NCBI GenBank assembly: GCA_009923445.1
Contig: RFTN01000005.1
Span: 1-53,052, forward strand
Direction: 5' to 3'
DNA: 53,052 nucleotides
From: a bacterium
GTDB taxonomy: Bacteria > Patescibacteriota > Saccharimonadia > Saccharimonadales > SZUA-47
How positions within the stretch are numbered: the first letter of the stretch is position 1; each line of letters starts with the position of its first letter. This document shows positions 43,503 to 47,866 of this stretch, piece by piece. Position numbers and translations under genes: made by a program. The notes beneath the pieces are model-generated. The model searched no databases and had not been told where the DNA came from. It worked only from the letters and a program-made list of their open reading frames with translations.

Positions 43503-44364
43503 CTAATTACTGTATGCAAGTCCGCCCATGCCTGACATCACTCTGAGGACGTTGTAGTTGACTGCATAAACACGCAATTGGCATCCAGAGGAAGTGACAC
43601 CAGACCACAAGGTCAACAGCAAAGTGGCATTGTCAATGCGGGACATGTTGACCGTGCCGCTAGGCTGATGCTGTTCGGGGTTCAGTGCAAAGGAATACAC
43701 ATAGATACCAGTGGAGGGAATTCTGGTGTGGTGTTGGTAGGGTTGCACCAAGTTGAAGTAGTCACCATCACGGATGCTGAATCTATCGTGACCGTTCAGT
43801 TGGAGCTTGGCATCAACAACAGACTGAGTGACAGTCAAGTTGGGGTAGCTGCCAGCGCTGTTCACACCATACACAGAGGTATACTTGGATGAAATGTTGG
43901 CATTGGGTTGAGCGACCCAAATGAGTTCCTTGCAAGGATGGTTGAGGGCGAGCTTGCTCTTGACAGATTGGTTGGTGAAGCTTTCAGCACCAGTGTATTG
44001 AAGTTGCTCAATAAGGTATTCGTGTTGAACCTGAGCGAATTGTCTGCGCTCATCCGTATCAAGGTAGATGTAATCAACATACAAGCTGGCATAACCCAAG
44101 CTAGGAACAGAGGAGGGAGCAGTGCCAACAACCAAGCTATCAAAACTAGCAAAAGTAATGTTGAACTTGACTTCGTGATATTGCAGGGCAATAAGAGGAA
44201 GAGCAAGACCAGGATTTCTGCAGAACCAGAATTGAAGAGGAATGTACAAAGTGGTTTCAGGTTTGGCAGAAGCGTCATAGGCAGTAAGAGCATCAGTGTT
44301 ACCAATCATAATGCTATAACCATCCTGCTTTTCAGCTGTTTGAGTAAGTTCGTTCCAAATGTTT
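43503..44364 (-). CDS. MCP: MCP exon 6 (starts with the third base of a Leu codon; includes the stop)
   Basis: A|AAC ATT TGG AAC GAA... reads [24 protein letters not shown]... and continues into the track ORF 43503-44309. It is preceded by the intron-terminal G at 44365. Confidence 0.9.
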
Positions 44365-47300: not shown

Positions 47301-47866
47301 TAGTATGGTGATATACGAACCATACTAGCAGCTCACTGTTGGCACCCAAGATATATTTTCTAAGCGCCATCGGTTTGTCCAATATCTTTCAACATTGGCC
47401 GGACTATATCTTAAGCAATTTGTCTAACAAATTACCCATCTCCATTTAGTCTCTGAACGTTCTCCTTTAATTGTTCTCTTATTAAAGTACCTTTACACTT
47501 GGGGTTAGTCCGATCAACCAGATTTGTATAGAGATAACTTTATGAAGTCAATTCTAAGGAGCTTCGCTGCGGATCGTCCAATCCTTCACATTGTTACCAT
47601 TGGGGACGGCTATTAACCGTGTTCTTCCTATATGTTTCCAAATAGGAATGGTAGTTTAGGCTCTAAGGAGTTTCCCGCAATTTGAAGATGTCGCAAAAAG
47701 GTCCATTGGTCCTTTTCACTAGCCAGTTATATGATGTGGAAAGAGTACAACCACACCCGTATTTTATACTATTTTCCTTGAAGAGTGAATACGGAACTCC
47801 CAAGTAGCTGACTATTGTGCCCTATAGCGCATATAAGGCCACGAGTTGCATAAGTCCACCACCCAT
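43503..47866 (-). CDS. MCP: Major capsid protein gene locus (six exons, five group I introns; spliced CDS 1212 nt = 403 aa)
   Basis: See the exon and intron features. The spliced product is [66 protein letters not shown]...[17 protein letters not shown]...[17 protein letters not shown]...LQLNGHDRF...[28 protein letters not shown]...[11 protein letters not shown], which carries the canonical NCLDV double-jelly-roll MCP motifs. Confidence 0.9.
44365..45097 (-). mobile_element. Group I intron 5 (733 nt)
   Basis: It follows the exon end ...GAUUGGCU and begins UAAAUGUGAGGCC. GGCC pairs with exon GGCU (P1) and AAAUGU pairs with exon 6 ACAUUU (P10). Core motifs CAAAUUGCGGGAAACCCC, CCGCAGCCAAGUUCC, CAACGACUACAUGG and UUAAGAUAUAGUC are present, and it ends in G. 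A ~230-nt extension lies after P7 with strong hairpins (CCGGTGA/TCACCGG, AATAATAGT/ACTATTATT). Confidence 0.85.
45098..45288 (-). CDS. MCP: MCP exon 5
   Basis: CGT AAA GTT TCA... reads [63 protein letters not shown](L). It is 191 nt and ends in CT, the first two bases of Leu. Confidence 0.9.
45289..45971 (-). mobile_element. Group I intron 4 (683 nt)
   Basis: It follows the exon end ...UUCGGU and begins AAACUUUAAUGCCGU. GCCG pairs with CGGU (P1) and AAACUUUA pairs with exon 5 UAAAGUUU (P10). A 68-nt stretch near its 5' end is identical to intron 5. The core motifs are present and it ends in G at 45289. It carries a ~190-nt insertion (about 45646-45838) with microsatellites. Confidence 0.85.
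45972..46077 (-). CDS. MCP: MCP exon 4
   Basis: T|ACA GGT AAT CCT CAA ATT ACT TTC TTC AAA... reads (L)[35 protein letters not shown]. 106 nt. Confidence 0.9.
46078..46934 (-). mobile_element. Group I intron 3 (857 nt) carrying an ORF
   Basis: It begins UAAAAGCCUGUAGGGUAGA. GGGUAGA pairs with exon 3 UUUACCU (P1) and CCUGUA pairs with exon 4 UACAGG (P10). Core motifs CAAAUUGCUGGGAACCCC, CAGCAGCCAAGUUUC, CAACGACUAAAUGG and AUAAGAUAUAGUC are present, and it ends in G at 46078. Confidence 0.85.
46120..46608 (-). CDS. Intron-encoded ORF, putative homing endonuclease (Cys-rich N-terminus, HNH-like C-terminal half)
   Basis: 162 aa, [30 protein letters not shown]...[12 protein letters not shown]...[15 protein letters not shown]... 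It lies between the GCAGCCAAGU element and the P7 5' strand. Its last ~17 codons run through P7/P3'/P8, and its TAA stop is the UAA of the J8/7 UAAGAUAU. Confidence 0.5.
   Translation of the reverse strand: MVSIGVCCVCKASSADCIQLYKRTVCRACYLGKLSGQRKKNVHYRLKKSLAAKIRRSISTQTNTLDYIGCNIHYLREYLQFNFTAEMNWDNYGTFWDIGHVVSEFDLAVESEKYRYWNWSNLFPVVRNESVDASIAKRNLSCFKEEGSTTKWFSGEFVLDSS
46935..46948 (-). CDS. MCP: MCP exon 3, a 14-nt micro-exon (CAAGATATTTACCT = QDIY + CT of Leu)
   Basis: It restores the conserved YGAQDIYLTGNP motif and the reading frame. It is flanked by G|...U| boundaries and is complementary to the guides of introns 2 (P10) and 3 (P1). Confidence 0.7.
46949..47362 (-). mobile_element. Group I intron 2 (414 nt)
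   Basis: It begins UAGAAAAUAUAUCUUGGGUGCC. GGGUGCC pairs with exon 2 GGCGCU plus the first intron U (P1), and AUAUCUUG pairs with exon 3 CAAGAUAU (P10, 8 bp). The core is CAAAUUGCGGGAACCUCC and CCGCAGCCAAGUGUC, with a more diverged P7/J8/7 (CAACGAGUAGACGG, UUAGUGAUAGUUC). It ends in G at 46949. Confidence 0.75.
47363..47370 (-). CDS. MCP: MCP exon 2, an 8-nt micro-exon (ATGGCGCT = the last two bases of Tyr, then Gly and Ala)
   Basis: It is preceded by the terminal G of intron 1. The intron 1 guide GCGCUAU pairs with AUGGCGC (P10, 7 bp) and the intron 2 guide pairs with GGCGCU (P1). It supplies the conserved (Y)GA. Confidence 0.7.
47371..47835 (-). mobile_element. Group I intron 1 (465 nt)
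   Basis: It begins UAUAUGCGCUAUAGGGCAC. GGGCAC pairs with exon 1 GUG(G)CCU (P1). The core is CAAAUUGCGGGAAACUCC, CCGCAGCGAAGCUCC, UCAGAGACUAAAUGG and CUUAAGAUAUAGUCC, followed by a P9-like hairpin CCAAU...AUUGG. It ends in G at 47371. Confidence 0.8.
47836..47866 (-). CDS. MCP: MCP exon 1 (ATG GGT GGT GGA CTT ATG CAA CTC GTG GCC T)
   Basis: It encodes [10 protein letters not shown] plus the first base of Tyr, which fits the conserved NCLDV MCP start M(A/G)GG..QLVAYGAQD. A poly-A/T upstream region is present. Confidence 0.75.

Follow-up and report, generated by a model that had tools for sequence, protein, structure and literature searches.

A giant-virus major capsid protein gene predicted to be split by five group I introns, with micro-exons of 8 and 14 nt

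Results

The 53,052-nt stretch analysed here (contig RFTN01000005.1 of GenBank assembly GCA_009923445.1, positions 1 to 53,052; hereafter ‘the window’) carries on its minus strand, at 43503-47866, a major capsid protein (MCP) gene of the type found in nucleocytoplasmic large DNA viruses (NCLDV), in which six exons join into a 1212-nt frame of 403 codons followed by TAG (Table 1). A preliminary description of the window had proposed this joining together with the lengths of the five intervening sequences, and recomputation returned both exactly: the exon lengths sum to 1212 nt and the intron lengths account for the rest of the locus without remainder. Mechanical calling of open reading frames (ORFs) yields only fragments of the MCP, namely the two that the description had named (43503-44309, 268 aa; 45082-45300, 72 aa). 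The spliced product (of which LVAYGAQDIYLTGNPQ is a predicted stretch) contains neither a frameshift nor a stop in its 403 codons, and its initial assignment to the NCLDV capsid proteins was borne out by matches to the Pfam families Capsid_N (8.8e-60, 202.2 bits) and Capsid_NCLDV (3.9e-56, 190.3 bits), as well as by an end-to-end alignment with Vp54 of PBCV-1 (residues 1-403 versus 1-437, E 2.8e-103, the first 80 residues gap-free). Vp54 is collinear and gap-free across junctions 1-5, as is MCPv1 (E ~1e-103) across junctions 1-4 and 5. Relatives number in the thousands in a large protein collection, where the top uninterrupted, full-length matches reach 72-79% identity with 100% of the query covered, and the 10 residues encoded by exon 1 are identical in uninterrupted homologues. 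In an alignment of 12 sequences the residues at every junction (contexts LVA|YGA|QDIYL|TGNPQ, VDFG|RKVSC and GDWL|NIWNEL) are invariant or nearly so, with zero indels; since these residues are conserved without indels in uninterrupted homologues, the junctions are set by homology, independently of any RNA model. The exons are richer in G+C (45.7%) than the introns (38.5-40.9%). Taken together, these observations lead us to read the locus as one complete and, to judge by its sequence, functional NCLDV MCP gene, split by five group I introns and including micro-exons of 8 and 14 nt.

The intron class was assessed on the minus strand with RF00028 (gathering score 50 bits), the single, generic covariance model that Rfam offers for group I introns. 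A gathering scan of the whole window returned four matches, all to RF00028, all on the minus strand and all inside the MCP locus, where introns 1, 5, 4 and 2 match the full model (positions 1-253) with 70-101 bits. At permissive thresholds intron 3 gives two partial matches flanking the ORF that it carries (45.5 bits, E 1.6e-9, for the P7-P9 half; 20.8 bits for the P3-P6 half), and the intron at the same site in the closest relative (contig L001, see below) behaves alike (45.3 and 29.3 bits); the five group I introns claimed at the outset are thus recovered, one of them as partial matches. No group I element was found outside the MCP gene in the window by the Rfam gathering scan and by motif scans. 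The conserved core strings listed in the preliminary description are present, in order, in all five introns, with small corrections for two of them (the readings are CAAAUUGCGGGGAU in intron 4 and CAAAUUGCUGGGA in intron 3). Intron 2, which had been singled out as diverged, does differ in P7; the difference is a compensatory swap of C-G to G-C (GACUA/UAGUC to GAGUA/UACUC), which is also present in its L001 counterpart and keeps the outer G-C pair. Furthermore, P4 of intron 3 shows a compensatory change from G-C to U-A, and an alignment of the P7-P8 region of 11 related introns contains changes on both sides in 8 of the 15 predicted pairs. The introns visibly carry large inserts in the region of P5, as well as extensions of P9 that have GAAA loops.

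Two other classes of intervening sequence were considered and rejected, namely spliceosomal introns (GT-AG boundaries are absent, and each intron runs from T or A to G) and, for the MCP intervening sequences, inteins (stop codons abound in them). Introns 4 and 5 are paralogues, in which the first ~119 nt (the P2 region; 45839-45957 and 44968-45084, minus strand) are 95.8% identical and the core 78.5%; the higher identity in the 5' periphery than in the core suggests recent gene conversion between them. As a separate observation, tandem repeats occur in the peripheral loops, i.e. (GCTAA)n and (GAGTAAAT)n in intron 4 (~45674-45690 and ~45785-45810, minus strand) and (GCGAGT)n in intron 3 of L001 (~1327-1385), and these loops tolerate short-repeat insertions.

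Each of the five upstream exons has U as its last base and each of the five introns has G, as had been stated initially. The first base of an intron is never the first base of the next exon, and for this reason the homology-set junctions cannot slide. Duplex folding reproduced all the guide pairings of the preliminary description, the last exon U pairing with a guide G in each of the five introns. Introns 1-3 pair strongly, with a P1 of 6-7 bp closed by U.G (-6.8 to -10.9 kcal/mol) and a P10 of 6-8 bp (-8.2 to -10.7 kcal/mol) that is specific to the cognate exon (other 3'-exon starts are mostly weaker than -6 kcal/mol). The individual helices are, in intron 1, P1 GUG(G)CCU/GGGCAC with U.G at the splice site and a 7-bp P10 GCGCUAU/AUGGCGC; in intron 2, P1 GGCGCU/GGUGCC and an 8-bp P10 AUAUCUUG/CAAGAUAU; in intron 3, P1 UUUACCU/GGGUAGA and P10 CCUGUA/UACAGG; in intron 4, P1 CGGU/GCCG and P10 AAACUUUA/UAAAGUUU at exon positions +3 to +10; and in intron 5, P1 GGCU/GGCC and P10 AAAUGU/ACAUUU. 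Mean duplex energies are lower for cognate than for non-cognate combinations (P1 -7.0 versus -4.7 kcal/mol, P10 -7.5 versus -4.4 kcal/mol), in helices that are too short for a strong test, above all those of introns 4 and 5. Two helices claim exon 2 (AUGGCGCU) almost wholly: P10 of intron 1 takes up seven of the eight bases, P1 of intron 2 six or seven. Hence these helices cannot coexist, and they cannot serve, at one moment, the second step of intron 1 and the first of intron 2. In exon 3, on the other hand, helices of 8 and 7 nt share 14 nt and overlap by 1 nt, so that both nearly fit. From its micro-exons the gene had been thought to imply ordered or cooperative splicing: we take the sharing of exon 2 as a kinetic constraint, not as proof of a fixed splicing order.

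The best protein match to the spliced product (P0001) is 87% identical and covers residues 49-403 only, beginning with MDFSRK near junction 4. Its contig, L001, comes from a different sample (ENA ERZ17175165) and contains six RF00028-matching regions within or directly after the called MCP ORF. Reconstructed from the sequence, the L001 gene has seven exons (31, 8, 14, 13, 70, 1063 and 16 nt; 1215 nt, 404 aa), and the rule of U before and G at the end of the intron holds in all six introns. Its introns 1-3 occupy the same sites as those of the window and are 72-85% identical to them (intron 1, at 202-656, 72-77%; intron 2, 74%), sites 4 and 5 are empty, and there are three further introns, one separating codon 22 from codon 23, one inside codon 46 and one that precedes the stop by five codons. 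The last of these (4129-4595) leaves a 16-nt terminal exon (TGCTTACAGCAACTAA) that the gene caller read through, producing a false GGLVFSN* in place of GGLAYSN*, just as it had produced the false start MDFSRK.... Between the spliced genes of the window and L001 amino-acid identity is 90% and nucleotide identity 81.7%, with dS ~1.0 and dN/dS 0.081; the first 53 codons, at 89% nucleotide identity against 82% overall, are the most conserved part of the gene, and the A/T-rich region upstream of exon 1 is conserved as well. Such a low dN/dS at such a dS implies that both split genes were kept functional over a long divergence, which argues strongly against both a pseudogene and an assembly artefact.

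The former possibility, raised in the preliminary description, is that of an MCP pseudogene, decaying or silent and riddled with selfish introns, the capsid protein being supplied by an uninterrupted paralogue elsewhere. We consider it highly improbable, given that selection was measured against a relative of the same split structure at a dS near saturation, that the 403 codons are open and the U/G rule is obeyed at 11 of 11 junctions in the two loci, that the ribozyme cores are intact with compensatory changes, that the promoter-like upstream region is conserved, and that tblastn found no second MCP-like sequence within the window. It draws its support from the existence of several MCP paralogues in chloroviruses and mimivirids (MCPv1-v5 in the PBCV-1 structure 8h2i), from the degraded look of the intron-3 ORF, and from the fact that only 53 kb of the genome are visible, leaving room for an uninterrupted paralogue outside them. 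An assembly artefact (for instance, repeated intron copies mis-joined in a metagenome scaffold) would find a ready source in the 119-nt stretch shared by introns 4 and 5, and two other, shorter assemblies (NCBI RHBH01000033.1 and the Logan contig of SRR7812697) do end within intron 5, ~600 nt upstream of exon 6 and beside a stretch 96% identical to intron 4. We nevertheless give this explanation next to no weight, for each exon is present once, in the correct order and phase, and yields a perfect conserved protein; the independent L001 contig shares the layout from exon 1 through the third intron with diverged sequences; and similar arrays occur in many other contigs.

Table 1. Features of the MCP locus and of neighbouring ORFs discussed in the text (window coordinates; L001, closest relative).
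Feature	Coordinates	Strand	Description
MCP exon 1	47836..47866	-	31 nt, ATG to GCCU; codons 1-10 and first base of codon 11
Group I intron 1	47371..47835	-	465 nt, no ORF; RF00028 100.9 bits, E 4.6e-25
MCP exon 2 (micro-exon AUGGCGCU)	47363..47370	-	8 nt; identical in L001 (657-664)
Group I intron 2	46949..47362	-	414 nt, no ORF; RF00028 70.2 bits
MCP exon 3 (micro-exon CAAGAUAUUUACCU)	46935..46948	-	14 nt; identical in L001
Group I intron 3	46078..46934	-	857 nt, ORF-bearing; inserted in codon 18
Intron-3 ORF	46120..46608	-	162 aa; short copy of a family typically of ~246 aa
MCP exon 4	45972..46077	-	106 nt; last base of codon 18, then codons 19-53; aa 19-54 used in tblastn
Group I intron 4	45289..45971	-	683 nt, no intact ORF; phase 0, between G53 and R54; RF00028 71.5 bits
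MCP exon 5	45098..45288	-	191 nt; codons 54-116 and two bases of codon 117
Group I intron 5	44365..45097	-	733 nt, no intact ORF; in codon 117; RF00028 90.2 bits
MCP exon 6	43503..44364	-	862 nt, TAG at end; conserved C-terminus GMGGLAYSN present
T5orf172 ORF	41454..43247	-	597 aa; directly downstream of the MCP gene, same strand
Histidine kinase ORF	31290..32999	-	569 aa; hybrid histidine kinase with receiver domain
DNA topoisomerase II ORF	13348..19242	-	1964 aa; Hint and LAGLIDADG domains

In order to place the insertion sites in a wider frame, 80 IMG/VR loci encoding related MCPs were surveyed. Most of them are uninterrupted, and seven (L002, L003, L015, L034, L055, L059 and L073) have an above-cut-off RF00028 match inside or abutting the gene. 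The occupied positions vary from one gene to another: L002 has an intron near codon 10 only; in L003, L015 and L034 site 3 (codon 18) is filled, sites 1 and 2 being empty; L015 and L034 possess an extra intron near codon 25; and L003, L015, L034 and L073 carry one at or near the C-terminus/3' end. The more distant gene of L083 has sites 2 and 3 filled and site 1 empty, and exon 3 variants (CAAGATGTTTACCT and CAGGATGTTTACCT) were found in the distant MCP genes of L083-L085. Altogether, site 3 is occupied in L001, L003, L015, L034 and L082-L085, protein-segment mapping shows that sites 1, 2 and 3 are each occupied or empty independently across MCP loci, and the distinct insertion sites (window and L001 included) number at least eight. 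Homing elements usually prefer conserved targets, and the clustering of the introns in the first codons may be due to this stretch being the most conserved of the gene. The distant MCP genes (~50-55% identity) of L083 (4799-7702), L084 (4794-7002) and L085, on contigs of 170-340 kb, are split further (e.g. near the equivalent of codon 177), and after them come ORFs with an HNH_3 or a LAGLIDADG domain; endonucleases of other types thus target capsid genes too.

The ORF of intron 3 has 155 homologues in the protein collection, none of them named and most ~246 aa long. The family is characterized by two CxxC...CxxC modules, by the motif W.IDHIIPV...CWNWSNL.PV..NSSKK and by an invariant 12-residue C-terminus, which is the translation of GGUUCAACGACUAAAUGGUUUUCGGG, i.e. 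the J6/7-P7-P3' core of the ribozyme (46120-46170 of the window, minus strand). The last ~17 codons of the window copy overlap P7/P3'/P8, with the stop codon in J8/7. Since the P7 core encodes this C-terminus, the same bases are subject to constraints from both the protein and the RNA, and from the invariance of this RNA-derived end it follows that the whole family is intron-encoded. In line with this, three of three sampled homologues (chosen solely for their long contigs, 170-446 kb) lie directly upstream of a Capsid_N ORF, in introns inserted between ...TTTACCT and TACAGGTAA..., which is the site of intron 3 of the window (the insertion point in an intron-less MCP reads ...CAAGATATTTACCT|TACAGGTAATCC...). 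The Stc1 tandem zinc-finger domain of Pfam matches the N-terminal half of 16 of 22 members, and a profile search returned PDB 2luy. Since the motif looks HNH-like, we regard the family as putative zinc-finger/HNH-like homing endonucleases. Among the introns without an ORF, no maturase-like ORF was recognised.

Beyond the capsid gene, the window (G+C 39%, no tRNAs) encodes PCNA, topoisomerase II, a protein kinase, a glutathione S-transferase (GST), a dNMP kinase, an A22-like resolvase and a patatin-like lipase. Further ORFs, at 10889-11512, 4818-5993 and 12595-13095 (minus strand), are homologous to the minor capsid protein P8 of PBCV-1 and to two phycodnavirus families, DUF5767 and DUF5759; they speak for a position near the chlorovirus-like Algavirales and not near mimivirids, and we assign the window, on its gene content, to an NCLDV with a chlorovirus-like structural module. 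The sequence is known from metagenomes only (ENA ERZ28577356 scaffold_145, 56,270 bp; NCBI GCA_010031135.1; Logan SRR7812697). Three neighbouring ORFs deserve mention. The topoisomerase II ORF contains, between its GyrB/Toprim and GyrA parts, Hint domains in two stretches (one at aa 1207-1597) and LAGLIDADG homing-endonuclease domains (aa ~766-852), which suggests one and probably two inteins and, by extension, a genome that harbours selfish elements at the protein as well as at the RNA level in essential genes. The ORF that follows the MCP gene has a T5orf172 domain (GIY-YIG-related) and weak N-terminal matches of the MSV199/AntA type, and could be a free-standing nuclease beside an intron-rich gene. 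The third encodes a virus-encoded hybrid histidine kinase (HisKA and HATPase_c) fused to a response-regulator receiver domain.

Discussion

The explanation that we favour, and hold to be very likely, is that the locus is the functional MCP gene of an uncultured chlorovirus-like (phycodnavirus-type) giant virus, whose precursor of ~4.4 kb is freed of five related, self-excising group I ribozymes. The precursor would be transcribed from the conserved A/T-rich upstream region; in each intron the 5' splice site would be found through a P1 ending in U.G and cleaved by an external guanosine in the standard two-step pathway, and the exons would be ligated at the terminal G, with P10 helping to select the correct 3' exon. 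In addition, P10 might help to prevent exon skipping among close and similar 3' splice sites, a role that fits the strong and specific P10 helices of introns 1-3. On exon 2, P10 of intron 1 and P1 of intron 2 would form at different times. The ligated 1212-nt mRNA would then be translated into a 403-aa double-jelly-roll MCP. As regards origin, the introns may be selfish mobile elements of one family that colonised the first ~55 codons and codon 117, intron 3 being of the ‘parental’ type (with the putative endonuclease ORF), and introns 1, 2, 4 and 5 ORF-less derivatives, of which 4 and 5 would be recent paralogues. Self-splicing, splicing order, endonuclease activity and mobility are all features that we infer from the sequence.

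Several further observations weigh against this explanation. Neither of the two partial matches of intron 3 reaches 50 bits by itself, even if jointly they cover the core. Exact junction-spanning strings gave no match for junctions 1-3 (41 nt; viral and metagenome contigs) or for junction 5 (34 nt; metagenome contigs), a result that is nonetheless uninformative because contigs and not raw reads were searched. As to the intron-3 ORF, no nuclease profile was found in Pfam or PHROGs, even at lenient thresholds, and the structural resemblance is weak (AlphaFold model with a mean pLDDT of 75.7; best Foldseek hit Hpy99I, a beta-beta-alpha-Me enzyme, at E 0.05, and the HNH domain of NmeCas9 at E 0.4-2). 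Moreover, the window copy is without the first zinc module and has, in its motif, GH for DH and a deletion of ‘IP’; it may be decaying. Finally, the pairings of introns 4 and 5, reproduced as they were by folding, are weak: the P1 core is 4 bp, the A/U-rich P10 (7-8 bp) starts only at exon position +3 (a 2-nt offset), and some non-cognate exon starts pair equally well or better, so that P10 does not discriminate there. These two introns may need the help of proteins.

This last point leads to an alternative that is compatible with the favoured explanation and differs from it in mechanism, namely that some introns, though of group I descent, are no longer autocatalytic (the candidates being introns 4 and 5, whose P1 is minimal, and intron 2, in which J8/7-P7 is altered). 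They would require protein cofactors of the virus or its host, or a fixed order of splicing in which structure is provided by adjacent ribozymes or by exons joined earlier. Dependence on maturases or other proteins is common among organellar group I introns. A protein-dependent organellar group I intron has been described, for example, in PMC2396411. The weak P1 and non-discriminating P10 of introns 4 and 5 would agree with such a dependence, as would an exon 2 common to two mutually exclusive helices; on the other hand, the core elements score well above the family cut-off, the P7 change of intron 2 is compensatory and retains the outer pair, and the ORF-less introns offer no recognisable maturase. 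On balance, we judge a loss of autocatalysis to be rather unlikely.

The arrangement was initially called extreme, and extreme it is, in the sense of a previously undescribed instance; it is not unique, in view of the six introns of L001 and of three systems known from the literature (the mimivirus L425 gene, Faustovirus and fungal cox1). For mimivirus L425, cDNA shows three exons (aa 1-18, aa 19-27 with 24 nt, and aa 27-593), of which the first intron (1188 bp) has a weak group I match and the second no significant one (Azza et al. 2009; PMC2688009). Its intron after aa 18 lies at the site of intron 3 of the window and is likewise followed by a micro-exon; in contrast, L425 has two introns against five that all match the group I model, an exon of 24 nt against 8 and 14 nt, and a 593-aa protein against a 403-aa chlorovirus-like MCP. 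RNA evidence shows three exons also for the MCP transcripts of TetV-1, as in other Imitervirales (PMC12126595), and the metagenomic giant-virus contigs L082-L085 carry an ORF-bearing group I intron at the site of the first L425 intron. The occurrence of the same site in mimivirus, in mimivirus-like contigs and in the virus of the window, combined with the independent presence or absence of introns at individual sites, points to horizontal intron traffic between giant-virus lineages.

In Faustovirus E12 the MCP gene consists of 13 exons (13-527 nt) separated by 12 introns, among them five that Rfam assigns to group I, as established from transcripts (PMC6247863). It resembles the window in the fragmentation of an NCLDV capsid gene, in exons that are G+C-richer than introns and in the presence, within some introns, of ORFs, which in Faustovirus encode homing endonucleases; it differs by seven additional non-group-I introns, a span of ~17 kb and GIY-YIG endonucleases, whereas the window shows one ribozyme family within 4.4 kb and an uncharacterised zinc-finger/HNH-like ORF. 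The two virus lineages are unrelated (asfarvirus-like versus phycodnavirus-like). In Bodo saltans virus, ‘parental’ ORF-bearing and ‘offspring’ ORF-less group I introns reside in RNA polymerase genes, and endonuclease-mediated competition between co-infecting viruses was proposed (Deeg et al. 2018; PMC5871332). One ORF-bearing intron with related ORF-less copies in the same essential gene is a trait common to that virus and the window; the host gene (polr2a/b) is different, the HNH and GIY-YIG endonucleases are recognised by standard models and no micro-exons were reported. Among chloroviruses, the self-splicing group I intron of the TFIIS-like gene a125L of PBCV-1 is ~97% spliced by RNA-seq (PMC7019647, PMC3946568), and the PBCV-1 capsid gene A383R is reported to have no intron (PMC2688009); unlike the five introns of the MCP gene described here, chlorovirus introns usually occur one per gene. 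They are classed as IB in the literature. Outside the viruses, the mitochondrial cox1 gene of Agaricus bisporus has 19 introns and exons of 3-288 nt (PMC2987802). This gene shares with the window a dense group I array at conserved sites of an essential gene and micro-exons shorter than a P1 helix, yet it is organellar, with several subgroups, introns mostly of 1-2.7 kb and LAGLIDADG or GIY-YIG ORFs. Our literature search returned no paper on this locus, nor any on a phycodnavirus-type MCP with five to six group I introns. Multi-intron giant-virus capsid genes are already known, and the window adds a denser, extreme case, not described before, from an environmental virus of chlorovirus-like type; greater novelty lies in the insertion hot-spot common to several lineages and in the uncharacterised intron-encoded protein family.

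These leads can be joined into a broader hypothesis, which we advance tentatively and consider less probable than not by a good measure. The first ~55 codons of NCLDV capsid genes would be a cross-family homing hot-spot of at least 8-10 sites, colonised by one ribozyme family and seeded by an undescribed Stc1-zinc-finger/HNH-like endonuclease whose C-terminus is read from the P7 core; the 8-nt exon would serve in P10 and then in P1, the mRNA would depend on a kinetically ordered cascade, and the array might act as a weapon or an immunity marker between co-infecting viruses.

The MCP is the standard marker used to detect, count and classify giant viruses in metagenomes, and in this case gene callers see fragments of it. 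The fragmentary calls, the false ends of the L001 protein and the assembly breaks in paralogous introns indicate that intron-aware gene models are needed for this lineage. Furthermore, three ribozymes with exons of 8 and 14 nt between them constitute a natural system for the avoidance of exon skipping and for the sharing of an exon between P10 and P1. Moreover, the shared insertion sites offer a test of the idea that an intron endonuclease can be a competitive weapon, as proposed for Bodo saltans virus (PMC5871332) and shown for phage PhiPA3 (PMC11620839).

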